DNA from: an uncultured Candidatus Obscuribacterales bacterium
GTDB lineage: Bacteria > Cyanobacteriota > Vampirovibrionia > Obscuribacterales > Obscuribacteraceae
Direction: 5' to 3'
DNA: 64,000 bases
Assembly: GCA_964496875.1 (NCBI GenBank)
Contig: CAZCBH010000009.1
Location: 1,902-65,901 of the forward strand
Shown: piece after piece, positions 12,500 to 50,564 of the stretch
Numbering within the stretch: position 1 is the first letter of the stretch
Layout of the letters: each line of letters begins with the position of its first letter
Made by a program: the position numbers and the translations under genes
Notes under the pieces: model-generated
The model's database searches: none
Told to the model about the DNA's origin: nothing
Seen by the model: the letters and a program-made list of their open reading frames with translations, nothing else

Positions 12500-13795
12500 A
12501 TGGCGACTGAATCAAAAGCAACCGAGGGCAGAACCGGACAGAACAATCCGGCGGAGAAAGCAAAAGAGCGCATAGTTCTTTTGGTGGAACCCCTTGAAGA
12601 AGAGAGGAAACGCTGTCATAGCTTTATAAGCGACCAATCGCCCCTCTATGACGTAGAGACGGCAGCCTCGGGCAAAGAGGCGCTGGCGCTATTTACCACG
12701 CGCTCCTATGACGCTGTGGTGATGAGCTACCAGTTGGAAGACATGGAAGCCGAAGAGGTAATCCGCTCGATTATCACAGCCAATCCGAATTGTCCGATTA
12801 TTGTGACCACCGCCAACGACAGCCCGGAGCTGGCTATAAAAATGCTGCGTTCCGGCGCCATGGACTACCTTCCCAAATTTGGAGAGTACGAGAAGTTTTT
12901 GCCGAGGACCATAACCACCAATCTGCAACGATCGATGCTGATCGAGAACCTGAAAGATATGTACCGCCGGGTGGAAAGAGCCTCTCTGGATGAAGCTCTG
13001 CTCAATCGCCTCATCGTAAACATCCATGGCTCTCTGGAGATGGCCGATACGATAGAGCGTTCGACAAAAGCGCTGCTCACCGAGTTCAATGTCTCGAGAA
13101 TCATCATCTGCCTGGCCGAGGAAGACAGAAGCGACATGCGCATCCGACGTCAGATGACCGCTCCTGATCTAAAGCCAATCTCAGACAAGAGCATCCTTTT
13201 CGAAAAATATCACGACCTCTTACTGGATATCGGAGAAAGACGCCCCCTGGTGGTCATGCAGGACGACACCTTCTCTTTTGCCCAGGATGTGCGCATGGAG
13301 ATGATTAATTACGGCATACTGTCCATGCTGATGGTTCCTCTGGTCTATCGCGGCAAGCTCATGGGTCTCATCCATATGGACCAGACCGACGCGCCCAGGC
13401 TGTGGTCGGTAGCCGAAATCAATCTGATGACCAGGATTTCGAATCAGCTGGCTATTGCTCTGAGCCAGGCCAAGCTCTATCAGATTGTCGAAGCCCAGTC
13501 CACGAGCATCTCGAAATTGACCGAACTGTGCTCCCAGCTCAACGAGGTGGTGGGCTCGACCAAAGAGCTTACCGAAAGGACCGAAAGCAGAGAAAAAGTC
13601 CGAATAAAGCTCTCTTCTCGAGAAATGGAAGTGCTAAAGAAAGTCGCCCAGGGTCTCTCCAATAAACAAATAGCCGAAGAGCTTCATATCACCGAAGGAA
13701 CCACCGAAGTGCATGTATCGAGGCTGAGGAAGAAGTTATCTGTGAATAGCCGTGCCGCCCTGGTCCGCTTCGCCTACGAGAATCATCTCTGCTGA
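12500..13795 (+). CDS. atypical response regulator: degenerate receiver - GAF - LuxR/FixJ HTH
   Basis: REC-like N-terminus (PIIVTTANDS, DYLPKF). GAF-like middle. C-terminal LSSREMEVLKKVAQGLSNKQIAEELHITEGTTEVHVSRLRKKL. Confidence 0.8.
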   Translation: MATESKATEGRTGQNNPAEKAKERIVLLVEPLEEERKRCHSFISDQSPLYDVETAASGKEALALFTTRSYDAVVMSYQLEDMEAEEVIRSIITANPNCPIIVTTANDSPELAIKMLRSGAMDYLPKFGEYEKFLPRTITTNLQRSMLIENLKDMYRRVERASLDEALLNRLIVNIHGSLEMADTIERSTKALLTEFNVSRIIICLAEEDRSDMRIRRQMTAPDLKPISDKSILFEKYHDLLLDIGERRPLVVMQDDTFSFAQDVRMEMINYGILSMLMVPLVYRGKLMGLIHMDQTDAPRLWSVAEINLMTRISNQLAIALSQAKLYQIVEAQSTSISKLTELCSQLNEVVGSTKELTERTESREKVRIKLSSREMEVLKKVAQGLSNKQIAEELHITEGTTEVHVSRLRKKLSVNSRAALVRFAYENHLC

Positions 13796-20387: not shown

Positions 20388-21584
20388 ATGCGTCAAACAA
20401 AAAAGGTTGAAGGAACCAAAATCGCCCAGGCGGCTAAGGATCTGAACGTCACCTCGGTGACAGTGAGAAGATACATCAGCGAATTCAATATCGAGACCGC
20501 CACCGATAAAAACGGGATCAAGGTTCTACCCGAACAGGCCATGGAAGAGCTCAAAGAAGTTCGCCGCCTCAAAGAGGAAGGTCTGACCAACCCTCAAGTC
20601 CTGGAATCTCTAGAAGAGCAACGCTCGAAACCGGCGAAAAAATCGGTAGAGAAGGTCGAGAAGGCAGAAAAGACAGAAAAGGCGAAGAAAGAAGAGAAGC
20701 CCAAGTCCAAAGCCAAAGCTAAAGAGAAAGACAGCGAAGACAAAGAGAAGTCTAAAAAAGCCAAATCCACCACCGCAAGAAGAGGCAAGAAGGTCGAGCC
20801 TGATGTGGATGAGGTGGAGGAAGAGGAAGAAGCGCCAGCGGCTTCCCGGGGCAGAAAGCGTACACGCCGTAAAGAAGAAGAAGAGGAAGAAGTAGAAGAG
20901 TCGGATGTCGAAGCCGAATCCGAAGAGGAAGAGGAGGAAGAGGAGAAATCCGGCGATTCTGATTCTGATTCCGATTCCGAAAGTTCTGACGGTAGGCTCA
21001 AGCATTCCCTCACCTGCCAGACATGCGGCAAAACCTTCGAACATCCGAATCCAAGACTGAGAGACTGTCTCGACTGCTATAGAACCAAGCGCAAAGAGAG
21101 ACGTCGGGGTGGCGACCGTCACAAAAACGTCATCCAGCATCCGCTGGCCCAGCAGGTGGTCAGCAAGATGGCCAGCCAGCAGCAATCCAGAGATGATAGA
21201 GACAGTAGAGAGAGCAGCAGGGACAGAGATCGAGACAGAGATAGAGATAGAGACAGGGACCGGGATAGAGACCGGGATAGAGAAAGAAGCAGACCGGTCC
21301 GGGAAGCCAGCCATCAAGTAAGACCGGTTGCCCATGTCCAGAGCCAGGCTCAGCCTATAATCGGCGGTCTCAAAACCAAAGTGAGAAGCTATCGCAAAGC
21401 GATAGACGAAACCAGAAACATAACAAGCTCGCTGAAGCGAAGATTGGAGCGCCCCGATCTGCCTGAAGGCGAAAGAAGATGGCTGGAGCAGATCTACGCC
21501 TATCAGCTCATTCTGCACCAGGGCTGGCGGCATCTATCGGAGTATCGCTCCACCACCAATCAACAAGCCAAGCAAGACGACTAG
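20388..21584 (+). CDS. MerR-type HTH protein with K/E-rich and poly-acidic linkers, CxxC...CxxC zinc ribbon and (RD)10 repeat
   Basis: KIAQAAKDLNVTSVTVRRYISEF...LKEVRRLKEEGL resembles MerR. Also CQTCGKTFEHPNPRLRDCLDCY and RDRDRDRDRDRDRDRDRDRDRER. AAGGGA SD lies 8 nt upstream. Confidence 0.65.
   Translation: MRQTKKVEGTKIAQAAKDLNVTSVTVRRYISEFNIETATDKNGIKVLPEQAMEELKEVRRLKEEGLTNPQVLESLEEQRSKPAKKSVEKVEKAEKTEKAKKEEKPKSKAKAKEKDSEDKEKSKKAKSTTARRGKKVEPDVDEVEEEEEAPAASRGRKRTRRKEEEEEEVEESDVEAESEEEEEEEEKSGDSDSDSDSESSDGRLKHSLTCQTCGKTFEHPNPRLRDCLDCYRTKRKERRRGGDRHKNVIQHPLAQQVVSKMASQQQSRDDRDSRESSRDRDRDRDRDRDRDRDRDRDRERSRPVREASHQVRPVAHVQSQAQPIIGGLKTKVRSYRKAIDETRNITSSLKRRLERPDLPEGERRWLEQIYAYQLILHQGWRHLSEYRSTTNQQAKQDD
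21219..21287 (+). repeat. imperfect 6-bp coding microsatellite (AGR-GAY)n encoding 10 x Arg-Asp followed by RER
   Basis: Codons read directly: agg gac aga gat cga gac aga gat aga gat aga gac agg gac cgg gat aga gac cgg gat aga gaa aga. Confidence 0.9.
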
Positions 21585-24221: not shown

Positions 24222-24304
24222 GCCGAAGTGGTGAAATGGCAAACACGCTACGTTCAGGTCGTAGTGAGCATTAGCTCTTGTGGGTTCAAGTCCCACCTTC
24301 GGCA
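24222..24304 (+). tRNA. tRNA-Leu (anticodon CAG), class II with long variable arm, CCA not encoded
   Basis: Hand-folded cloverleaf. Acceptor GCCGAAG/CTTCGGC. D-stem GTG/CAC. Anticodon stem CTACG/CGTAG with loop TTCAGGT. Variable stem GAGC/GCTC. T-arm GTGGG-TTCAAGT-CCCAC. Discriminator A. Confidence 0.9.
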
Positions 24305-26585: not shown

Positions 26586-27344
26586 ATGTCCAGTTCAGAA
26601 GCCGAAGCAGAATTAAAAGGGGATATCGAAGCCGAAGAGGAAGAAGATCCTTCTTCCATGACCGTGGTCGAGCATCTCGATGAGTTGCGGCTAAGGTTAA
26701 TCAGAGGCATCGCCTATGTCACCGTGGCCTTCTTCATCGCCCTTGTCTTCGCCAAGGACATCATGAAGATTCTGCAAGCTCCGGCAGGCGACATCACTTT
26801 CCAGGCTCTTTCGATAGAAGAGCCTATCATGGTCTTCTTCAAGGTCGCTTTCTATTCGGCATTGGTGATGGCGTCACCTTTCATACTCTTCGAAGTAAGC
26901 CAGTTCGTCGCCCCCGGTCTCACCGAGAAAGAGAAAAAGATAGTGGCACCTGCCCTCATCGGCGGACCGATTCTCTTTGTATGTGGTGCCAGCTTCGCTT
27001 ACTTTTTGTTGTTGCCGCCGATGCTGCACTTCTTCCAATCTTTCGGAGAAGGGGTGACACCTATAAACCAGAGACTGGATTTCTACATGTCCCTGGTATC
27101 ATCGCTACTTTTATATATGGGACTCTGTTTTCAGCTTCCGATAGTGCTTTTCGCCCTTTCACTGACCGGGCTCGTCACCTCGGATCACCTTATAAAAATC
27201 TGGCGCTATGCCGTGGTTGGTGCTTCGGTGGTGGCACTGGTTATCACCCCGGATCCAACCGCTGTCTCGATGCTCCTGGTCACAGGCGCTTTGATAGGCT
27301 TGTATTCGATAACTGTAGTGCTCCTCAAGTTATTCGGGCGCTGA
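26586..27344 (+). CDS. tatC: twin-arginine translocase subunit TatC
   Basis: MTVVEHLDELRLRLIR (HLxELRxRL) followed by six hydrophobic segments. Confidence 0.9.
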   Translation: MSSSEAEAELKGDIEAEEEEDPSSMTVVEHLDELRLRLIRGIAYVTVAFFIALVFAKDIMKILQAPAGDITFQALSIEEPIMVFFKVAFYSALVMASPFILFEVSQFVAPGLTEKEKKIVAPALIGGPILFVCGASFAYFLLLPPMLHFFQSFGEGVTPINQRLDFYMSLVSSLLLYMGLCFQLPIVLFALSLTGLVTSDHLIKIWRYAVVGASVVALVITPDPTAVSMLLVTGALIGLYSITVVLLKLFGR

Positions 27345-28619: not shown

Positions 28620-29885
28620 ATGTTCGACAGCCCCAATAACTTCTATTTCTGGTGTGTCACGGGAATCTCGGTTCTCGTAGGCGTCGACACTGTGCTCCGT
28701 CTGTGGACCGAAAGACACCGTTTTCCCAAGGACGATCTCAGCGAAGAAGACAGGTCAATGATCTGGCGCATTGTGGTCTTCTTGATCTTTCCTCTTATTA
28801 CATTGATGGAGCTCAACGCCACCGAAGTAGGAGCAAGGTCTTTCGGCGGTGAGTTGAGCACCTGGTCTTACGGATTACTCTGGTATGAAGCCTATCCTAC
28901 GGCTCTGGCTAAATCGGCATTGATTCCGGCATTATTCTCGGGAGAGTTCTTTATTCTCTGCCTGGCTCTGTCTATGCTGCCGGCGCTCTTCTTCCGCCCC
29001 CATCCTTTTCTAGCGACATTAATAGGATATACGGTCACTTTTATATTCGCCGTCAACCTGATTATCGAACCGGTTATAGCTCTGACCGGCATGAGCGGCT
29101 CTAAATGGTATCTGGCTTTGAATGAAGGGGCGCCGGAGCAGATCATGCCATTGGCTATGCTGCATCTGGTCCTGGCCGTCATCTATTTGATGGTGGTAAG
29201 AAACAGATCCGTGCGTCTCTGGTTCTCCGAATTGACCAGGCCAGATGCCTCGGACCGCCTCAAAGCAGCGATTTTCGAATATCGTGCCACCGGGGACAGC
29301 GCCCGTACTCTGTCTAAACTGGGCATCCTCTATGAAAGAGCCGGATTGCACAGACAAGCCAGAGAACAGCTGAAAGTGCTGGAGAGGCATCATCCGACCT
29401 CACTCTATACTTATTTCTTGAAAGCCCTGGTGAATTACGGTCAGCGCAAATTCGACAAAGCGAAAGCCGCATTTCTCTATGCTTCGGACATGGCCCATGA
29501 CGCGGCCATAAGCGGCAGCGCCATTACCACCATCGCCGAGACGGATAAGCTACGCGCCCAGCTCCTGGCTGCAGCAGCCTGCTCCTCATTTGCCGCCGGA
29601 GAGATTATCCAGGCGATTAACTTGAGCGAAAGAGCGCTGGAGCTGGATGATTCTTATCTAGTGGCACGGATGGTGAAGGTCGATGCCCTCCTGAGAACAG
29701 GCCAAAAAGACCAGGCAGCCCAGGAAATTCTTATAGCGGTTCATTCCGGACTTACTCTGGATCTGGAGAACAAAGTCCCCCTGGATGTGGAAGCATCCTT
29801 TGCTTTACTAGAAGAGATGGAATCCCAGAGAAGCGCTTCCGAAGCTGGAAAACGAACGGTATTAGAGACAGCAGGTAAAAATTAG
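28620..29885 (+). CDS. paralog of the preceding membrane-TPR protein lacking the HExxH motif
   Basis: Alignable by eye: FDKDLTLSDRRALIKITLFFTYPVVVLIHEIGH vs FPKDDLSEEDRSMIWRIVVFLIFPLITLMELNA, and RIWFAGKTRP vs RLWFSELTRP. The TPR-like C-terminus is shared. Confidence 0.6.
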   Translation: MFDSPNNFYFWCVTGISVLVGVDTVLRLWTERHRFPKDDLSEEDRSMIWRIVVFLIFPLITLMELNATEVGARSFGGELSTWSYGLLWYEAYPTALAKSALIPALFSGEFFILCLALSMLPALFFRPHPFLATLIGYTVTFIFAVNLIIEPVIALTGMSGSKWYLALNEGAPEQIMPLAMLHLVLAVIYLMVVRNRSVRLWFSELTRPDASDRLKAAIFEYRATGDSARTLSKLGILYERAGLHRQAREQLKVLERHHPTSLYTYFLKALVNYGQRKFDKAKAAFLYASDMAHDAAISGSAITTIAETDKLRAQLLAAAACSSFAAGEIIQAINLSERALELDDSYLVARMVKVDALLRTGQKDQAAQEILIAVHSGLTLDLENKVPLDVEASFALLEEMESQRSASEAGKRTVLETAGKN

Positions 29886-41813: not shown

Positions 41814-43868
41814 ATGGGCAACTTTCTAGACAGTTACGATGGCAATGTAATCCGCATCAAACCTCAGGATGATACGGATTCAAATATAGGATCGCAGTCC
41901 GAAACAGCAGCCTCATTACTAGGTGACGCCCTCCACACCGCAGCCTACAGTGCTCTCCAGAGTCCGCTCACCGCGGTCGCACAAACGGCTGACTCGGCTT
42001 TTGGAACCGACCTGACCGAATCGACCAAGTTTCTGCGCTCTCCCGATGAGATCACAGATACATACTCGGCAAAATGGCATACCCACCAGGTTGCCGCCGC
42101 GGTGGGCATGATCCTGCCGTTTATGTTGGCCCGCAAAGGGGCGAGGAATATCCTCAAGACAGAAGCGGCCGTAGGCAGCGGAGTCTTCTGGAAAACCGCA
42201 GCGGTGAAAGAAGCCGCTTTATCTGGTTTCATCTATGAAGCGGCTCTGCATCCCTCCACCGGCACCCACGACAATCTACTTGATCTCGGTGTCGACCGCT
42301 TCAAGCAAGGACTCTCCGGTGCCGCCACCTTCGGCACCCTGAGCTATGCCGGCATCGGTATCAGAAGTGGTGCCAAGGGTATGTTGGGAGAAACAGCACC
42401 GAACCTGACCAAATTCTTCGAGAATCCTATAACGGCTACAACCTTAGCAGGAGCTCCTGCCGGTCTGGTGAGCGCCCAGTCCAACTCGATATTGTTCGAA
42501 GGCAAGTTCGCCGATCTCGATACATCGGTAGAGAGCGCCTATGCCATGTCCTTCGTGGGCGCCAGCCTGGCGGCTGCCCATCAGGCACCGACCAGCAAGA
42601 ACACCCTCTTGCCTCCACCATCAAATAAGCCCCTGGCTGAGCGCCTTGCCTCTCTAAAATCCACTGCCGGAGAAAAGATCGAGAGAAGCAAATTCTTCAT
42701 CCAGGAGAAAGCCGCCGAAGCATCGCGCGGTCTCGATATTCTGGTGAGCGATCTAGCAGGACCTCAGCCGGCCCTCGCCATGGCCGGCTCGCCAGTTGGA
42801 ATGAGAGCCTTTGAATTCGACGCACCGGGCAGATCGAAGGGAAACAAAGCCGTCAAGCCCGCTACCACAATGCACATGGAAGCACTGGATTTCGATGGTA
42901 GAAGCTCATCTTCCGGAAGACTCAGTGATCTGGAAGGCTCTCTGAAACTGCCGGAGCGCCCGGAACTCAAAGAAAGCCGCGAGCGAAACCCGGAAGCAAG
43001 TGCGGCTAGAGGAGAATCTGCTATCGACGTTCTACGAAGCCATTCTCTCCATGATATTGCCGACTTCGTCGCGTCCAACAAGACTCTCAGAGACCTTCGT
43101 GTAGATCCCGAAAGAGTCTTTCACGGCAACGATGCCCTCATCGTTATGGAAGTACAGCCGAGCAAAGCTCTACCCGATGGAGCCGCCCTCAAAGCGATAG
43201 TACCGGAAGGCGGCTGGGAGAATAACTGGGGCAAACGTCCCGGGGACGCGAAAATATTGGGTAAAGTCCATGAAGTAGAGATGGGCTCCAGTTCCGGCAC
43301 CGCCTATGTCTACCTTCAGGAGCTGGTCGAAGTGCGTGATCGCTACGAACCACATCTGTTAGACGGCTACTTCCGGGGACTGGAAGGCAAAAACCTGGTA
43401 TTCGAAGAACCCGGTAACAATCCCAATAAACAGTTCGGTATCAGCCAGAGAACCGGAAAGTTGGTTTTAATAGATTATCCGTCCACCGGAAAACCCGGTC
43501 ATATGCAGACCCTGAACGAAATTATTCAAGGACCGGAATATTTCGAACGAGAATACGAGGCCGAAAACACTCGTATGCGCGAAGGCAAATCCGAAGCTGA
43601 AGCCGAAGCTGAAGCAGCCGAGTTGAGCCAAACCACCACAAGAGACTTTGAAAGACAGCGCTTCGTCGAAGAAAAAGGTCTGACACCGGCAGAAAAAGAG
43701 ATGGTAGACCAGCTCTCCATGGGCATCACCAAATCCGAACTGGCCGAATACACCGCTCTCATGCGCGGTCAGTTGAATGCCGACGGGCTGCCTGACGTCA
43801 AAGGCATAATGCCTGAGATAAACGCCCTGGTGAAAAAAGCCAAAGCGGCCGGAATCAAATTCGAATAG
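41814..43868 (+). CDS. large hypothetical protein (684 aa): Ala/Gly-rich amphipathic N-terminal region, disordered linker, globular C-terminal domain, (EA)n, helical tail
   Basis: Long uninterrupted ORF with no signal peptide. No family recognised with confidence. Confidence 0.6.
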   Translation: MGNFLDSYDGNVIRIKPQDDTDSNIGSQSETAASLLGDALHTAAYSALQSPLTAVAQTADSAFGTDLTESTKFLRSPDEITDTYSAKWHTHQVAAAVGMILPFMLARKGARNILKTEAAVGSGVFWKTAAVKEAALSGFIYEAALHPSTGTHDNLLDLGVDRFKQGLSGAATFGTLSYAGIGIRSGAKGMLGETAPNLTKFFENPITATTLAGAPAGLVSAQSNSILFEGKFADLDTSVESAYAMSFVGASLAAAHQAPTSKNTLLPPPSNKPLAERLASLKSTAGEKIERSKFFIQEKAAEASRGLDILVSDLAGPQPALAMAGSPVGMRAFEFDAPGRSKGNKAVKPATTMHMEALDFDGRSSSSGRLSDLEGSLKLPERPELKESRERNPEASAARGESAIDVLRSHSLHDIADFVASNKTLRDLRVDPERVFHGNDALIVMEVQPSKALPDGAALKAIVPEGGWENNWGKRPGDAKILGKVHEVEMGSSSGTAYVYLQELVEVRDRYEPHLLDGYFRGLEGKNLVFEEPGNNPNKQFGISQRTGKLVLIDYPSTGKPGHMQTLNEIIQGPEYFEREYEAENTRMREGKSEAEAEAEAAELSQTTTRDFERQRFVEEKGLTPAEKEMVDQLSMGITKSELAEYTALMRGQLNADGLPDVKGIMPEINALVKKAKAAGIKFE

Positions 43869-43922
43869 GTGTAATTGCCTGCTAAGGCTTCGAAAAGTTA
43901 CTTAACTTGAGAAGATTCGAGC

Positions 43923-43950
43923 TTGCATTTTCCTGCTTGCGTGTTAGCAT
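43923..43950 (+). promoter_or_regulatory. candidate sigma-70 promoter for the trp leader (TTGCAT - 16 nt - TGTTAGCAT)
   Basis: -35-like TTGCAT (43923-28), 16-nt spacer, and extended -10-like TGT-TAGCAT (43942-50). Confidence 0.3.
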
Positions 43951-44000
43951 TTTTATCGTGTCGGAAATTCGGTCCTTCATACTGGACTTAAAGCAAAACG

Positions 44001-44078
44001 ATGAAGTTAAGACAAAGCCAAAATCAATTCTGGTGGAGCTGGTTCGAAAAAGCCGAGCCCCTCTCCTATTGGCGCTGA
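44001..44078 (+). CDS. trpL: trp operon leader peptide (25 aa, 4 Trp)
   Basis: Hand translation gives MKLRQSQNQFWWSWFEKAEPLSYWR*. TGG codons at 44031, 44034, 44040 and 44070. It is bounded upstream by an in-frame TAA at 43989. The SD is weak. Confidence 0.65.
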   Translation: MKLRQSQNQFWWSWFEKAEPLSYWR

Positions 44079-44123
44079 ATTTCAGATCAAGCGATTAAGT
44101 AAGAGAATTCAATCTAACTAAAA

Positions 44124-44166
44124 GACGGGCAAGGTTAAGACAAGAGTCACCAGCCCGTATTTTTTT
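44124..44166 (+). terminator. intrinsic terminator (attenuator) between leader peptide and trpE
   Basis: ACGGGC(44125-30)/GCCCGT(44153-58) plus GGT/ACC, followed by A-TTTTTTT (44160-66). It lies 35 nt before the trpE ATG. Confidence 0.7.
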
Positions 44167-44201
44167 GCATTGCTTTTTAGAAATTGAGGACACCTAAAGT
44201 C

Positions 44202-45671
44202 ATGACCGGGGAAACGATCTTATTCAAAGCCAGGAAACTGCATTGTCTGGCCCTGGACAAAAATTCAGAAAACAGTCCATTCATTCACCAGGGACGACCG
44301 ATTGCTATTTTCGAACGCCGTTCTGCCGACGCCGACTACACAGTAACAGTGTTCAGAGCATCGGACCGAATCGTTCTCCAGCCTGATGCTCTAGAAACCC
44401 GACAGCCAAATTGCCCCTTCGACTATCTTGCCTCGGCTCTCGAAAGTCTGGCAAAGAGCGTCGACTGCTCCAACCTGGCTCCCTATGCAGATATTCCGTT
44501 CAAGTATGGCTTCCTGGGTTATCTGGGCTACGGACTGACAGCCTCTCAGGCTACCCTGGCTATACCAAGACAGAAACAACGCTTCATCGATGTTCCCGAT
44601 GCAGCATTAATAGTCCCGGGCGCATTCACCATAGAAGACCGCAAAAACGGAAAGCTCTATCTAATATCGGATATCGACATCGAAGAATGCAAAAGCCTGA
44701 TTGCAAAGGCAGCCTGTTCTAAACCGCTAGATTCAACCACCTCGAAAGAATCGACTGCGGCGATAGAGCCTTCTATGACAAAAGAAGAATACCTCGGCAA
44801 AGTTGAAAGAGCAAAAGAATATATCAACGAAGGCGAAGCATTTCAGATAGTGCTGGCTCAGAGATTCTCTTGTGCTCTTGAAGAGTCGGCGCTAGCGCTT
44901 TTCGAGAGAATAAGAAAGAGTGCTGATGCACCCTACGCTTACTATCTTGATCTGGAAGATTTCCAGTATCTGGGGCTCTCGCCCGAGAGCATGATCTCTA
45001 TCGAAGGCGATAGAGTATCCTTCAGAGCCCTGGCCGGCACCCGGCACCGGGGGCGGGACGAAGCCGAAGACCTCGCTCTCACCAGTGAACTTTTGAGCAA
45101 CGAGAAAGAAAACGCCGAGCATATGATGCTGGTTGATCTGGGTCGCAACGATCTTGGCCGGGTCTGTACTCAAGGCACTATAGAAGTGGAGAACCTCAAG
45201 CAAGTTTTGAAATATCCAAGCGTCATGCACCTCTCGACAGATTTGAAAGGCAAACTCGACTCCACTATCGCTCCTCTCAAAGCGGTTGGATCTTGCTTCC
45301 CCCGGGGCACTGTCTCCGGTGCCCCCAAGCGCCGCGCCCTCACTCTGCTTGCCGAACTCGAACCAGAGCGCAGAGGCATCTATTCCGGAGCAGTGGGCAT
45401 TATCGAGATTGGTGGAGACATCGATCTTGCCATCGCCATCCGCTCCGCCACCATAAAAGACGGCATCGCCCATGTCCAGGCCGGTGCCGGTATTGTCTAC
45501 GACTCTATTCCGGAATGCGAATACGAAGAGACTCGCAACAAAGCCGCCTCTATTCTCGATCATATCAATCGGTCATGGCGAAGCCAGGACGACACCAATC
45601 ACCCTGGCTTCACTAAACTCGCCTTTCAAAGGGAAAAGCACCATGACCATACTTATAATCGACAACTATGA
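44202..45671 (+). CDS. trpE: anthranilate synthase component I
   Basis: Chorismate-binding core (LSPESMISIEG..., GTRHRG..., LLSNEKENAEHMMLVDLGRNDLGRV, GTVSGAPKRRA, RGIYSGAVG). ATG 44202 with GAGGA SD. Confidence 0.9.
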   Translation: MTGETILFKARKLHCLALDKNSENSPFIHQGRPIAIFERRSADADYTVTVFRASDRIVLQPDALETRQPNCPFDYLASALESLAKSVDCSNLAPYADIPFKYGFLGYLGYGLTASQATLAIPRQKQRFIDVPDAALIVPGAFTIEDRKNGKLYLISDIDIEECKSLIAKAACSKPLDSTTSKESTAAIEPSMTKEEYLGKVERAKEYINEGEAFQIVLAQRFSCALEESALALFERIRKSADAPYAYYLDLEDFQYLGLSPESMISIEGDRVSFRALAGTRHRGRDEAEDLALTSELLSNEKENAEHMMLVDLGRNDLGRVCTQGTIEVENLKQVLKYPSVMHLSTDLKGKLDSTIAPLKAVGSCFPRGTVSGAPKRRALTLLAELEPERRGIYSGAVGIIEIGGDIDLAIAIRSATIKDGIAHVQAGAGIVYDSIPECEYEETRNKAASILDHINRSWRSQDDTNHPGFTKLAFQREKHHDHTYNRQL

Positions 45672-46236
45672 CTCCTTCACCTATAACATCGTCCAACAGG
45701 TAAAAAGCGTCCACGACAGAGCGACAGAGACCTATTTCAATGACGCCATCGACTTCGAGCAGATCAAAGCCAAACGCCCAACCGGAATAATAATTTCGCC
45801 CGGTCCCGGACATCCGGCAAGACCGGGGGACTTCGGCGTCTGTCGAGAGATAATCGAAAGAAGAGAAGAGCTGGGATGCCCGATTCTGGGCATCTGCCTC
45901 GGTCACCAGGGCATAGCTCATATGCTCGGAGGGAAAATAGAAAAAGCCGCGCAAATCTTCCACGGCAAAATCAGTCGCCTCGAGACCGTGGCCAGATCAA
46001 GCCTGTTCAAAGGCGTTCCACAATTTTTCGATGCGATGCGCTACCACTCTCTAGTCGTATCTCAGAAAGACTTTCCGACAGACCTGACCGTCACAGCCGT
46101 CGAACCGGCCACCCGGACGATTATGGCGCTGGAGCATCAACATTATCCACTCTTCGGACTTCAATTTCATCCGGAATCAATCGGTACTGAATGCGGTTCG
46201 CGAATAATGAGGAATTTTTCAGAGCTATGTCATTAA
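45643..46236 (+). CDS. trpG: anthranilate synthase component II (glutamine amidotransferase)
   Basis: MTILIIDNYDSFTYNIVQ..., GPGHP, ILGICLGHQ, FGLQFHPES. Overlaps the trpE end by 29 nt. Confidence 0.9.
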   Translation: MTILIIDNYDSFTYNIVQQVKSVHDRATETYFNDAIDFEQIKAKRPTGIIISPGPGHPARPGDFGVCREIIERREELGCPILGICLGHQGIAHMLGGKIEKAAQIFHGKISRLETVARSSLFKGVPQFFDAMRYHSLVVSQKDFPTDLTVTAVEPATRTIMALEHQHYPLFGLQFHPESIGTECGSRIMRNFSELCH

Positions 46237-47144
46237 TTCCAGATAGAGCGAAACTGCTCGCCGCCCCGGAAAACACCGGCTTAGATTCTCTTCGCCGAAT
46301 TCTCGAAGAACTGAAGTCTTCGACAAAGACAGATCTGAGCGACCTGGGAAGAGACGCTCTCGACTGCTGTGGAACAGGTGGAAGCGGTCACCATAAATTC
46401 AATACATCGACAGCGGTGGCTTTTGTCGTAGCGGCCGCCGGCAAAAGAGTGATCAAATTCGGCAATCGCTCAGCGACAGGGCAATCGGGCTCGCTAGACT
46501 TCTTGGATTCGATCTCGATACCTCCTTTGGCAGAAAGATACGCTATTGAACAGTCCCTTGCAAAGGAGAACCTGGCTTTCTTGGATGCTTCCCGATTCTA
46601 TCCTCAACTGAAAGACCTCGCTCCCATAAGAAAGAAGCTGGGGAGACCGACCCTCCTCAACTATCTAGGTCCGCTGCTCAATCCGCTCAAACCGGAGTAT
46701 AGACTTCTTGGAGTCAGTAATGAAGCGATGCTGAATCATCTTGCCACCATCTGTAGCGAGGACTCCGGTCTTACGAAGGTATTGCTGGTCCGCTCTGAAA
46801 AAGGTCTCGATGAACTGGATCCGGTATCATCCAATACGGTTATAGAAATCGACAATGCAGAAGCCCCCTCTAGATATAACCTTAAAACGCGCAGAATATC
46901 CGGCGCTATCGAAGAAGAGAAAAGAGACAATAGCACCATCTTTCTGGATATTATCGAAGGAAAAGACCGCCTCTCCCTGGCCTATTCCGCTCTTGTTCTG
47001 AATGGCGCCGCCGCACTAATGGCGGCGGCAGCGGTAAACTCTCTTGAAGAGGGCATGGAGACCGTCGAGAATCTCTTGAAAAGCGGGGCTGTCCGACAAA
47101 AATATATTAGAACAAAAGAGTTTACAAAGGAGATTGCCGCATGA
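46227..47144 (+). CDS. trpD: anthranilate phosphoribosyltransferase (somewhat divergent)
   Basis: CGTGGSGHHKFNTSTAVAFVVAAAG and KFGNRSATGQSGSLDFL correspond to the GTGGDG / KHGNR motifs. It sits at the expected position in the operon. Confidence 0.8.
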   Translation: MSLIPDRAKLLAAPENTGLDSLRRILEELKSSTKTDLSDLGRDALDCCGTGGSGHHKFNTSTAVAFVVAAAGKRVIKFGNRSATGQSGSLDFLDSISIPPLAERYAIEQSLAKENLAFLDASRFYPQLKDLAPIRKKLGRPTLLNYLGPLLNPLKPEYRLLGVSNEAMLNHLATICSEDSGLTKVLLVRSEKGLDELDPVSSNTVIEIDNAEAPSRYNLKTRRISGAIEEEKRDNSTIFLDIIEGKDRLSLAYSALVLNGAAALMAAAAVNSLEEGMETVENLLKSGAVRQKYIRTKEFTKEIAA

Positions 47145-47896
47145 AAGTTCTCCATGAGATAGTCCGGTCAAAAGAGGCCGAGATAGCTTCTTTGAAAGCT
47201 AGAAAAGCAGACTTCAAAGCCGGCATTAAAGCCGAGCGAAACAAATTCAATGTCATCGGCGAGATCAAACCGGCTTCGCCCAGTCGCGGACAGATACTGA
47301 ATAGGGATCATATCGCCGCGCATATAAAAGCCTACAAAGAGAACGCAGTAGCAATCTCGGTTCTGACGGACAAAAAATACTTCGGCGGCGGCTACGACCT
47401 GCTGCGCCAGGTAAAACAAGCGGCAGGCGATGTACCTGTATTGCAAAAGGATTTCATCACCGACGAGATCCAGCTGTTGGAAGGCTTCAAAGCCGGTGCC
47501 GACGCGGCTCTTCTGATTGTGAAGATCCTGCGCAGAGACAGACTGGCGGCACTCTATCAACTGGCTACCAGCCTGGGCATAGAGGCGGTGTTTGAAGTGA
47601 GCGACGAAGCCGATTTGACCAAAGCGCTCTCGCTTTGCCCGGATGTTGTTCTAATAAACAATCGCAACCTCGATACCATGGTCATAGATCTTGCCACCAC
47701 CGGCAGACTGACAGCCCTGATTCCGCCGGATATAAGAGCCGAAACCGCTATCATAAGCGCCAGCGGTTATGATAGCAGAGAGCAGATAGCTGCCTTCGGC
47801 GGAGGCGCCGATGCATTTCTTATAGGCTCTTCCCTTATGGCTAGCGCCGCTCCAGAAACTCTCCTGCAAGAGTTTTGCTTGAAGGAGATAGCTTGA
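47141..47896 (+). CDS. trpC: indole-3-glycerol phosphate synthase
   Basis: VIGEIKPASPSRG...ISVLTDKKYFGG...LQKDFI...INNRNL. ATGA overlap with trpD. Confidence 0.9.
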   Translation: MKVLHEIVRSKEAEIASLKARKADFKAGIKAERNKFNVIGEIKPASPSRGQILNRDHIAAHIKAYKENAVAISVLTDKKYFGGGYDLLRQVKQAAGDVPVLQKDFITDEIQLLEGFKAGADAALLIVKILRRDRLAALYQLATSLGIEAVFEVSDEADLTKALSLCPDVVLINNRNLDTMVIDLATTGRLTALIPPDIRAETAIISASGYDSREQIAAFGGGADAFLIGSSLMASAAPETLLQEFCLKEIA

Positions 47897-47898
47897 AT

Positions 47899-48576
47899 AT
47901 GACTTACAAAAATATTCAAATCAAAATCTGTGGTATCACGCGACTTGAAGACGCCACCCTGGCACAAGACCATGGCTGCGATCTGCTCGGCTTCATCTTC
48001 GCCCGCCAATCGCCTCGATATATAAATGCGCAAATAGCGGCTTCGATAATTGAGACTTTGAGAGAAAAAGGCGGTGTCGAAATAGCAGGGGTGTTCAAAG
48101 ACCAACCCCTCGAAGAAGTCCTGAGCATAGCAGAAGCCCTGGATCTCGACTATGTGCAACTGCACGGCGAAGAAGATGAAAACTACATTGCCGGCCTGAA
48201 CAGACCGGTGATCAAGGCGATAGTTTACGGAACTGGTGATGGCGAAAACGCGCTCGCGAAATATAACAGTAGCCGCACTATTCTACTGGATCTTCCTAAA
48301 CAGGGCATGATCATCGATAAAACCTCAGCCAGAAAAGAGCTGGAATCTATTTTGGCCGAAGCCGAGCATACAGACCGAAGGATAATGGTGGCAGGGGGTC
48401 TGGATGCGGACTCTATTGTGGATTTGTTGAACAAATTCTCTCCCTGGGCGTTAGACCTGTGCTCGGCGGTGGAGTCCGATCCCGGTATCAAAGATAGAGC
48501 CAAGTTGATAAAACTGCTCAGGCAGTTTCAAACAATTTCCAAAGCCAAGGAGAAGCACTATGTTAACCAGCACTAA
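47899..48576 (+). CDS. trpF: phosphoribosylanthranilate isomerase
   Basis: [12 protein letters not shown]...DLLGFIF...VQLHG...GGL. AAGGAG SD before ATG 47899. Confidence 0.85.
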
Positions 48577-49729
48577 ATTCGGTGCTTTCGGCGGAGTCTA
48601 TGCTCCGGAGACTCTATTACCGGCTCTTGAAGAGCTGGAAAAGGCCTTCATCGCCTTCGAGAAGGATGCTCATCTGCAAGAAGAGTTGCAAGAATTGCTC
48701 GCCGACTATGCCGGCAGACCCACTCCCCTTTATTTCGCCCGCAATCTATCTAAAAACTGGGGCGCCAACATCTATCTAAAACGAGAAGACCTGCTTCATG
48801 GAGGTGCGCACAAAACCAACAATGCCGTCGGCCAGGCTCTTATCGCCCGCTCCATGGGCAAGACCCGGCTGATAGCCGAGACCGGTGCCGGTCAGCATGG
48901 TGTCGCCACAGCCATGGCCGGAGCGCTATTTTCGATGCCGGTGAGAGTCTACATGGGAGCTTTAGATGTAGAGCGCCAGGCCCAGAATGTGGCGCGCATG
49001 AAAATGATGGGGGCCGAGGTCTGTCCGGTGCAGACAGGAGGCGCGACCTTGAAAGATGCCATCAATGATGCTCTCAGAGACTGGATCGGCAACCTCGACG
49101 ACACCCACTATTTGCTTGGCACCGCCGCCGGTCCCCACCCATTTCCAACTATTGTCAAAGCCCTGCAAAAGGTAATCGGCGAAGAGATCGCCGAGCAGTT
49201 CATACATAAAAAAAACCGCCTGCCCGATGCCATAGTCGCCTGCGTCGGAGGAGGCTCGAACGCAATCGGCGCTTTCAGCCGCTTCATAGAAGAAGAGTCC
49301 GTTCGATTGATAGGTGTGGAGCCCGCCGGCAAAGGTCTGGGAACAGGATTATCCGGAGCGGTGATTGCGGAGGGTAAAAGCGGCGTCCTCCACGGCATGA
49401 AAAGCATGGTCATGCAGAACGAAGACGGACAGATTCTAGAAACCCATAGCATCGCCGCCGGTCTCGACTATCCCTCGGTCGGTCCGGAACACGCCTATCT
49501 CAATGCCATCGGTCGAGTCCGCTATGACTGCGCCACCGACCAGGAAGCTGTCGAAGCCTATCTTGCCACCACCAGGGCAGAAGGTATAATCCCTGCTCTC
49601 GAAAGCTCCCACGCTCTCGCCTGCGCCAGAAGACTGGCCGGAGGAGAACTTGCCGGCTGCGATATCGTGGTCAACTTATCTGGCCGCGGCGACAAAGACA
49701 TGGACACTGTCAGCGGCTACACCGCCTAA
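48560..49729 (+). CDS. trpB: tryptophan synthase beta chain
   Basis: [15 protein letters not shown] (PLP lysine motif), [16 protein letters not shown]. Confidence 0.95.
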
Positions 49730-49745
49730 ACAGGGGACGATAAAT

Positions 49746-50564
49746 ATGAAGACGGTAAAAAACAAAAGCAGATTGGCCGAAGCCTTTTCAAAATTGAATC
49801 AGGAAGGCAAGAAGGCTTTCATCCCCTTCAATCTGCTCGGCTATCCCGATAAAAAATCTTGTATCGCCACCCTTAAAGCTCTGGTAGAAGGAGGGGCAAC
49901 GGCTCTGGAGCTGGGTTTGCCTTTTTCAGATCCGATGGCTGACGGACCTTTGATACAAAGGGCATCACATTCAGTGCTGGAAGCGGGCTTTTCGATAGCC
50001 GATGCCGTCACCATTATAAAAGAGGTTCGTTCAGCCTGCCCGGATACTCCGATTAATCTACTCACCTACTTCAATCTCGCCCTATCGAATGGAGTAGAAC
50101 CTTTTCTCACCAGATTCAAAGCGGCAGGCGTGGACGCGGTTACTTTCGTAGATCTTCCACTCGAGGAGATGGAAGAGATTTATGGAACCATGCAAAACCT
50201 GGAACTGGATTCGGTGATGTTGATATCACCGCTGACACCGCCCCATCGCATCGACGAAATTTTGAAATATGCCCGGGGTTTTCTCTATCTTGTATCGAGA
50301 GCAGGTACCACCGGCATGCAGGAGTCCTATTCGAGCAAACTCGAAGAGGTGGTCAAAACAATCAAAGAGAGAACCGAGCTGCCTGTGATGATTGGCTTCG
50401 GCATATCCGGCGCCGAACAGGCAAGAAATATGATCGAACTGGGTGCGGACGGGGTTATTGTCGGTAGTAAAATTCTCGATGTCATTGAGAAGAGCGCTTT
50501 GAAGGAAAGAGAGAAAAACCTCGTCTCCTTCACGGCGGCAATAGTGAAAGCCCTGGAAAAATAA
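49746..50564 (+). CDS. trpA: tryptophan synthase alpha chain
   Basis: ALELGLPFSDPMADGPLIQ...GFGIS... Located at the end of the operon. Confidence 0.9.
   Translation: MKTVKNKSRLAEAFSKLNQEGKKAFIPFNLLGYPDKKSCIATLKALVEGGATALELGLPFSDPMADGPLIQRASHSVLEAGFSIADAVTIIKEVRSACPDTPINLLTYFNLALSNGVEPFLTRFKAAGVDAVTFVDLPLEEMEEIYGTMQNLELDSVMLISPLTPPHRIDEILKYARGFLYLVSRAGTTGMQESYSSKLEEVVKTIKERTELPVMIGFGISGAEQARNMIELGADGVIVGSKILDVIEKSALKEREKNLVSFTAAIVKALEK

Follow-up and report, generated by a model that had tools for sequence, protein, structure and literature searches.

The tryptophan operon trpEGDCFBA in the 64-kb stretch of DNA analyzed here (hereafter, the window), from an uncultured Candidatus Obscuribacterales bacterium, is preceded by a short, Trp-rich open reading frame (ORF) and an intrinsic terminator. 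We consider it likely that this leader acts as a transcription attenuator of the ribosome-mediated (leader-peptide) type, linking expression of the operon to the supply of charged tRNA-Trp. Features described below lie on the forward strand unless stated otherwise. The trpL-like leader ORF has 25 codons (44001-44078), running from an ATG start to a stop codon at 44076-78, and its predicted product is MKLRQSQNQFWWSWFEKAEPLSYWR*. It contains four TGG codons, at 44031-33, 44034-36, 44040-42 and 44070-72. The first three form the predicted regulatory cluster W11, W12 and W14 (TGG TGG AGC TGG, 44031-44042), which falls in invariant columns of our alignments A2 and A6; the last is W24. Sequence and translation agree with an earlier, sequence-only reading of this DNA, which had described a 25-codon ORF with four Trp codons, three of them within codons 11-14, and had proposed a classical trpL-type attenuator. 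That proposal gains support from a conserved ORF with its Trp cluster, from a co-varying terminator and from a co-varying antiterminator; at the level of sequence comparison, this support, with 12 lineages and covariation in both the terminator and the antiterminator, appears unusually clean.

The terminator is an interrupted hairpin at 44125-44158 (ACGGGC..GGU..GAC-AAGA-GUC.ACC.GCCCGU), closed by the arms ACGGGC (44125-30) and GCCCGT (44153-58) and followed by an A and seven T residues (44160-66), so that the whole element spans 44125-44166. Folded alone, the hairpin reaches -15.4 kcal/mol (z = -3.66), and none of 200 shuffled sequences folds as well. Equivalent hairpins with runs of T5-T9 are present in all relatives that we compared, and their helices co-vary: 80% of cells are paired versus 71% in shuffled alignments (0/500 as high), with a covariation score of 0.317 versus 0.182 (1/500). 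The trpE gene begins with an ATG at 44202-04, behind a ribosome-binding site (GAGGA, 44186-90; the two together at 44186-44204), which confirms the earlier description of a GC-rich hairpin with T7 ending 35 nucleotides (nt) before the trpE ATG. This distance is also 35 nt in the relative L168 and is 11 nt in the relative L173. In the window clade, L168 and L173, the interval from the T-run to the trpE start is too short for a promoter, so that the operon can be expressed there only by read-through of the terminator. Several other relatives (L164, at its positions 2414-2500, L166, L167, L170 and L175) have long post-terminator spacers of 52-167 nt that carry a recurrent hairpin followed by GGTATCAC, GGTATCGC or GTATCAC. 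This hairpin, which may be a second conserved element, is absent from the 35-nt spacer of the window clade.

We gathered these relatives through TrpE. In a scan over one genome per GTDB species, the closest proteins came from the metagenome-assembled genome (MAG) of Candidatus Obscuribacterales bacterium HK-STAS-CYAN-1 (89% identity) and from MAG RI_106 (85%), with all others at 47% or below. The nearest genomes are Candidatus Obscuribacterales MAGs, an order placed by the NCBI taxonomy within Candidatus Melainabacteria, in the Cyanobacteriota/Melainabacteria group, and the earlier remark that the window does not look enterobacterial was therefore well founded. In a metagenome TrpE scan no match exceeded 43% identity. 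We therefore turned to a protein collection for TrpE homologues in the 41-50% identity range and retrieved their contigs for the upstream regions. The compared set comprises 12 lineages, the window clade and 11 others, with TrpE identities from 89% down to 41%; all are MAGs, and they include two from Obscuribacterales and one from Vampirovibrionales.

In all 12 lineages, the region upstream of trpE shows the same succession of ATG, non-conserved codons, Trp cluster, stop codon, GC-rich hairpin and T-run. The leaders read MQEIQIQLQNNLWWPWQKKEAAPTEIFC (L164), MHAANTFNTTWWLWSNEPVKPRWRCKFSSN (L165), MKLAQNKTNKWWSWSNRLVKPLWWCS (L166), MKLAVNKLNTWWLWSNQPIEPRWRS (L167), MKLAHTNQQTWWLWSNRLEEPYWCS (L168), MTTNTANAQNWWTWCNLVDEPRWRW (L169, Obscuribacterales GCA_019637435.1), MKTDIITAQYWWTWHSMADRPRWRW (L170, Obscuribacterales GCA_019746975.1), MATNSFNAQSWWTWCKLADGPRWRW (L175), MKKTVQKAAFRWWAPIWWLQSSCGQLKVLPA (L171/L172, Vampirovibrionales GCA_035285165.1) and MRESILQLKLSWWRAVKQPGKHLLGW (L173/L174, labelled as an Oculatellaceae cyanobacterium). 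An alignment of the trpE upstream regions of relatives, which the sequence-only reading had suggested, shows both the Trp codons and the hairpin to be conserved where TrpE itself is only 41-50% identical. Close relatives (L001, L002 and L161-L163) match the window at 97-99% identity over leader ORF and terminator, versus 82-91% over trpE DNA, and the two amino-acid changes found in L002/L161, K17E and A18T, both fall in the loop of a hairpin that is described below as 1:2. The chance occurrence of an ORF beside an ordinary constitutive terminator, or beside the terminator of the upstream gene, might be entertained given that short ORFs are common and that the hairpin, because of its long loop, was not flagged by a consensus terminator scan. 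Conservation in 12 lineages with covariation speaks against this, as do a conserved promoter between the upstream gene and the leader and the singularity of the arrangement: the leader is the sole intergenic mini-ORF in the 64-kb window that pairs an amino-acid cluster with a terminator-like hairpin, and no other amino-acid leader mini-ORF was found in the window. We therefore regard a chance ORF as extremely improbable, and the comparative data appear to have effectively refuted it. The motif TGGTGGNNNTGG occurs five times in the window versus 0.35 expected; the other four sites, at 12909-12920 (reverse strand), 20761-20772 (reverse), 27229-27240 (forward) and 29521-29532 (reverse), were rejected as leaders, each lying inside a longer open frame and in a different frame, where the sequence encodes Gly-rich G-G-x-G stretches.

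The pattern of conservation within the ORF suggests that it is translated. A W-W-x-W cluster is invariant in ten aligned leaders; among the 12 lineages, L171 has the variant WW..WW and L173 has WW plus a C-terminal W. The ATG stands 10-12 codons before the WW pair, and over this interval (codons 2-10 in the window) the number of codons is conserved and their sequence is not. ORF length ranges from 25 to 31 codons across relatives, and indels come in multiples of three, such that 26 or 29 nt separate the WW pair from the anchor of region 2, the leader segment that pairs with the terminator. Together, an invariant ATG and Trp cluster, variable codons between them and in-frame indels argue for a translated regulatory ORF whose peptide sequence is irrelevant beyond the regulatory codons. 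These same features bear on a ribosome-independent RNA switch, in which a T-box-like leader, a TRAP-like protein- or tRNA-binding leader or a Trp riboswitch would conserve the UGG triplets for structure or binding and the ORF would be incidental. Such a switch would be in keeping with the predicted pairing of the UGG triplets with an invariant GCC and with the missing Shine-Dalgarno sequence of the leader. But an ATG placed exactly 10-12 codons upstream of WW, a frame that stays open and indels in multiples of three despite heavy sequence turnover would be expected only of an ORF that ribosomes translate. In addition, no Rfam family matches the leader, T-box included, either at the gathering threshold or at E <= 10 on 43850-44250; the Trp_leader family RF00513 likewise gave no match at either setting, and a T-box leader is ruled out on these searches. 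TRAP-regulated leaders of the Bacillus type carry 9-11 (G/U)AG triplets spaced 2-3 nt apart that overlap the antiterminator. On inspection of 44079-44135 we saw no such array, and a TRAP-type leader was rejected on this inspection, no search for a TRAP (mtrB) gene having been made. We consider a ribosome-independent switch very unlikely.

Folding of the leader predicts a set of competing helices. Region 1 consists of GGAG (44035-38) and GGUUCG (44041-46), thus 44035-44046. Region 2, GCCGAGCCCCUCUCC at 44052-44066, lies within the ORF (codons A-E-P-L-S), 12-24 nt upstream of the stop codon. Region 3, AGACGGGCAAGGU at 44123-44135, is the 5' arm of the terminator with its flanks. Pairing of regions 1 and 2 gives the 1:2 hairpin, a predicted anti-antiterminator (GGAG 44035-38 with CUCC 44063-66 and GGUUCG 44041-46 with CGAGCC 44054-59; -13.1 kcal/mol), and pairing of region 2 with region 3 gives the predicted antiterminator. 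The sequence-only reading had offered GCCCCTCT (44057-64) with AGACGGGC (44123-30) as the antiterminator, and this proves to be the core of a longer, co-varying pairing between GCCGAGCCCCUCU (44052-64) and AGACGGGCAAGGU (44123-35), whose cognate duplex also reaches -13.1 kcal/mol. Two outer helices, UGAAGUU 44002-08 with AAUUUCA 44078-84 and GCCAA 44017-21 with UUGGC 44069-73, close the leader domain (44002-44084) by joining its start and stop regions, and the UUGGC strand includes the fourth Trp codon. The full-length window transcript folds into the closed leader domain (-22.7 kcal/mol), with the 1:2 hairpin and the terminator. As the earlier reading had suspected, the terminator and antiterminator helices are mutually exclusive, and they are close in energy: with region 1 removed, the terminator state lies at -26.3 kcal/mol and the forced antiterminator at -24.6 kcal/mol in the window, a difference of 1.7 kcal/mol. 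Such nearly iso-energetic states fit a switch that is decided kinetically. We also noted that the Trp-codon segment 44030-44043 (CTGGTG, GCTGGT) is complementary to the terminator 3' arm at 44148-44154 (CACCAG, ACCAGC). This complementarity is an expected by-product of the 1:2, 2:3 and 3:4 complementarities, and it would allow a long-range 1:4 pairing in the window clade.

Comparison among lineages strengthens the case for the antiterminator. All 12 sequences share the G-CC at 44057-59, and the 2:3 pairs in other lineages differ in sequence: GAGCCC/GGGCUC in L167, AAGAGCCC/GGGCUCUU in L168, UUAAGCCC/GGGCUUAA in L166, GACGAGCC/GGCUUGUC in L169, GCCUGC/GCAGGC in L171 and GGUAAGC/GCUUACC in L173. 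A MAFFT alignment of full-length leaders was set aside because it misaligned the terminators between clades; we used instead gapless, anchored segments (alignments A3-A5, with A3 registered on the invariant GCC and GGC triplets) and an alignment-free test. In A3, 78.3% of region 2:3 cells are paired versus 68.2% in shuffles (0/500), and registers slid out of place give 22-46%. The covariation score is 0.294 versus 0.131 (0/500), and five of ten pairs change on both sides. In the alignment-free test, duplex energies were computed for every leader 3' segment against every terminator 5' segment. Cognate region 2/3 combinations sum to -185.7 kcal/mol, compared with -154.2 +/- 7.8 kcal/mol when partners are permuted, and only 4 of 20000 permutations are as low; this cognate/non-cognate statistic is insensitive to additive GC effects and does not lean towards structure. 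The outer start/stop helix shows a cognate preference as well (162/20000 permutations), and one of its pairs is G.U in the window, A-U in L001 and G-C in L161.

These pairings also account for residues that might otherwise be credited to a functional peptide. The ORF could in principle be an independent small gene for a Trp-rich peptide, or the transcript a trans-acting small RNA, with the hairpin as its own terminator and trpE regulated elsewhere. The precedent is the attenuator-derived peptide peTrpL and small RNA rnTrpL of Sinorhizobium meliloti, both of which have functions in trans (PMC7298713, PMC6614838), and a C-terminal P-x-W motif is fairly conserved among our leaders. Yet the conserved positions other than Trp coincide with RNA-paired nucleotides (xxG-CCx with region 3, and UUGG with GCCAA), codons 2-10 are not conserved, and in the window clade, L168 and L173 the interval after the terminator is too short to hold a trpE promoter of its own. 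An independent gene or RNA in place of attenuation is, on this evidence, quite unlikely; a trans role of the leader could exist in addition to attenuation, not in its place.

Taken as an attenuator, the leader would work as follows. Transcription would start about 45 nt upstream of the 25-codon ORF. Under scarce Trp, the first ribosome would stall at W11, W12 or W14 and cover region 1, leaving region 2 (44052-64) free to pair with region 3 (44123-35) once the latter is transcribed; this antiterminator would hold the 5' arm of the terminator, and polymerase would read through the T-run into trpE. Under plentiful Trp, the ribosome would translate through region 2 and be released at the stop codon, the leader would refold into its closed domain (outer start/stop helix plus 1:2 hairpin) with region 2 sequestered, and regions 3 and 4 would form the terminator, ending transcription at 44160-66. 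We modeled the ribosome as a 28-nt mask (A site -15 to +12) on transcripts folded to just before the terminator 3' arm. Minimum-free-energy models that place the A site on W14 show region 3 paired with region 2 in 8/8 lineages, and the probability of pairing between the region 2 core and region 3 under a stalled ribosome is 0.70-1.00 in all ten lineages. The same probability is 0.00-0.46 without a ribosome in eight of ten lineages, and 0.00-0.47 with a ribosome at the stop codon. On the leader-only transcript, the region 2 core pairs with the Trp-codon region with a probability of 0.76 in the window (0.41-0.87 across the ten lineages). A response of the trp operon to tryptophan would follow from such a switch.

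The late Trp codon raises a further alternative, in which free Trp would be sensed as by TnaC: at high free Trp, a nascent peptide of the form W...P...W-x-x-stop would halt its ribosome close to the stop codon, which would keep region 2 covered and enforce termination. Pro and a late Trp near the stop codon occur in nine of ten aligned leaders, and region 2 would indeed be covered by a ribosome paused with the late Trp codon, or one of those after it, in the A site. The spacing, however, is unlike that of TnaC, where it is W12-D16-P24-stop; a late Trp is missing from L164, and the leaders of L171 and L173 end differently. Moreover, RNA pairing accounts for the conserved residues, and the clustered Trp codons already explain sensing. 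Arrest of this kind is highly improbable, in our judgment, and the fourth Trp codon may instead be conserved because of its pairing in the outer helix.

Several observations nevertheless weigh against the attenuator that we propose, or against parts of it. All of the genomes compared come from uncultured organisms as MAGs. The anchored alignments were registered by hand on invariant triplets, which makes them lean towards structure. No covariation was found for the 1:2 helix in two fixed registers; only an invariant GG/CC core pairs in every lineage, and the lack of covariation reflects the invariance of both cores. In L168 and L169, pairing of region 2 with region 3 has probabilities of 0.91 and 0.99 without a ribosome, which is to say that the antiterminator forms at equilibrium without a stall. 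A ribosome that stalled at the fourth Trp codon, which is conserved, would occlude region 2 and favor termination, contrary to the simple logic of the switch. The sequence-only reading had supposed that a ribosome at the stop codon masks region 2. In our models such a ribosome covers the 3' edge, 44061-64, and just that; the rest of region 2 is left uncovered. With so little of region 2 covered, the Trp-replete outcome probably needs sequestration by region 1 after release. For this branch the leader domain would probably have to refold rapidly while the 45-nt spacer before region 3 is being transcribed, and the branch thus rests on refolding kinetics that lie beyond equilibrium models. Finally, there is no clear Shine-Dalgarno sequence before the leader ATG in the window or in any relative, where the sequence is only A-rich; the weak Shine-Dalgarno noted earlier is in this respect a trait common to all relatives.

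The missing Shine-Dalgarno may be related to where transcription begins. A putative sigma-70-type promoter at 43923-43950, suggested by its conservation in relatives, consists of a -35 element TTGCAT (43923-28) and, after a 16-nt spacer, the -10 hexamer TAGCAT (43945-50) with an extended TG (43942-43), the extended -10 reading TGTTAGCAT (43942-50). The sequence-only reading had placed TTGCAT 16 nt from TGTTAGCAT; the 16-nt distance holds for TTGCAT to TAGCAT, whereas only 13 nt separate TTGCAT from TGTTAGCAT. The promoter is nearly invariant among close relatives, and the arrangement TTGCA(A/T)/TTGCTT ... TG(T/A)TA(G/A)(C/G)AT recurs upstream of the leader ORF in L164-L170, L173 and L175. A consensus promoter/terminator scan of the window called neither this promoter nor the leader terminator, owing to hexamer mismatches in the former and a 22-nt interrupted loop in the latter. 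Transcription would start near 43957. In L164 the -10 element TAGCAT ends 10 nt before the leader ATG (L164 2238-2259), and in L166 the -10 is followed 8 nt later by an in-frame ATG. The leader mRNA may therefore be leaderless or nearly so in some lineages (L164, L166), which would fit the missing Shine-Dalgarno. Upstream of the promoter, 15 nt before the -35 element, is a perfect palindrome, AAGTTA-CT-TAACTT (43895-43908), which recurs unaltered in L001 and with a single change in L002. By analogy with TrpR, the second layer of trp control in E. coli, it could be an operator through which a DNA-binding regulator acts on the leader promoter.

Among known systems, the leader most resembles enterobacterial trpL, as in E. 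coli. Both have a short ORF with adjacent Trp codons, four segments whose 1:2, 2:3 and 3:4 pairings exclude one another (1:2 being a predicted helix in the window), an intrinsic terminator shortly before trpE and a trpE...A operon of like logic. In E. coli, once the leader has been translated for the first time, its start region can become sequestered, and the outer start/stop helix would allow the same for the window leader. The differences are that the window leader has 25 codons versus 14, with three clustered Trp codons and a late one versus two; that its region 2 lies inside the ORF, whereas that of E. coli lies just after the stop codon; that it has no Shine-Dalgarno sequence; and that its host belongs to the Cyanobacteriota/Melainabacteria group. 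The long trpL leaders of Vibrionaceae (e.g. ...WWRTWTSSWWANVYF) share a W-W-x-x-W type cluster, further Trp codons near the C-terminus and a hairpin with a T-run upstream of trpE, but at 36-45 amino acids they have no similarity to the window leader beyond the Trp residues and belong to another lineage, with another RNA sequence. Sinorhizobium meliloti trpL (rnTrpL/peTrpL) is likewise a leader-peptide attenuator upstream of trpE(G); there, trans functions are documented for the released RNA and peptide. Proteobacteria and Actinobacteria are both known to have trp attenuators of the classical type (PMC1262725). The actinobacterial examples, in Corynebacterium glutamicum and Streptomyces venezuelae (PMC1262725), resemble the window leader in their paired or tripled UGG codons, their GC-rich terminator with poly-U and their conserved pairing segments; they too are classical attenuators beyond Proteobacteria, recognized from comparative evidence of the same sort. 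They are from another phylum and unrelated in sequence, and two of the cases are experimentally supported, whereas the window leader is known from sequence alone.

As a control, the same leader scan was applied to unrelated trpE loci. It recovered the known trpL leaders of Vibrio, Photobacterium and Aliivibrio. In a Crocinitomicaceae (Bacteroidota) MAG and several metagenome contigs (L040; L119, L144-L158), it also returned mini-ORFs with WWW, for example MNFKCTNTNWWWSTQRM and MFHLNVNTKFWWWHFSNSQPE, that precede trpE and are accompanied by strong hairpins; these are candidates for further Trp attenuators outside Proteobacteria. Recovery of leaders in Vibrionaceae and in Bacteroidota-like loci suggests that the mechanism is phylogenetically widespread. 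In oxygenic cyanobacteria, the only hint of a leader is L173, whose label could not be verified: its "Oculatellaceae" designation was neither confirmed nor refuted by TrpE, for which the nearest named proteins are from "Cyanobacteria bacterium REEB67" at 64% and from Obscuribacterales at 54%.

The operon downstream of the leader is complete. The order trpE, G, D, C, F, B, A is confirmed by Pfam over 44202-50564, with Chorismate_bind/Anth_synt_I_N, GATase, Glycos_transf_3, IGPS, PRAI, PALP and Trp_syntA found in order. The trpG ORF listed for the window (254 amino acids, 45472-46236) is over-extended; in relatives, TrpG has 197 amino acids and its gene begins about 29 nt before trpE ends, which places the start of trpG in the window near 45643. 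On the other side, directly upstream of the trp leader, is a 684-amino-acid ORF without a Pfam domain (41814-43868). An ORF of 663-695 amino acids occupies the same place in L161, L164, L167 and L168, and judged by this position the ORF appears to be a conserved, lineage-specific neighbor of the leader. The sole Rfam match in the window at the gathering threshold is an 83-nt tRNA (24222-24304, 56.4 bits).

In the full-text literature, with most subscription journals outside our search, we found no trp leader described for Melainabacteria, Vampirovibrionia, Obscuribacter or cyanobacteria, and a 2016 survey reported no reliable attenuation data for cyanobacteria (PMC4833913). On balance, we lean towards regarding the leader as the first ribosome-mediated attenuator family in the Cyanobacteriota/Melainabacteria group, occurring across Obscuribacterales and Vampirovibrionales and possibly reaching the Oculatellaceae-labelled MAG. 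A co-varying Trp attenuator across Vampirovibrionia would fill the cyanobacterial gap in attenuation, and annotators of Vampirovibrionia MAGs would gain an RNA and mini-ORF family to mark upstream of trpE. It is a new lineage-specific case of a well-known regulator, with no new regulatory principle. Its architecture would nonetheless be distinctive, with region 2 inside the ORF, start and stop regions that pair and close the leader after one round of translation, and a leader mRNA that has no Shine-Dalgarno sequence and is maybe near-leaderless.

Leader-peptide attenuation works only when the ribosome closely trails RNA polymerase, which makes an attenuator a genomic marker of transcription-translation coupling. 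In Firmicutes, leader-peptide attenuation is mostly missing, and T-boxes or TRAP serve in its place. If the leader acts as we propose, the lead ribosome would be functionally coupled to RNA polymerase in these organisms. The leader would thus offer a compact, testable switch from an uncultured lineage, and it would extend the range of attenuation, along with the transcription-translation coupling that attenuation implies, into the Cyanobacteriota/Melainabacteria group.

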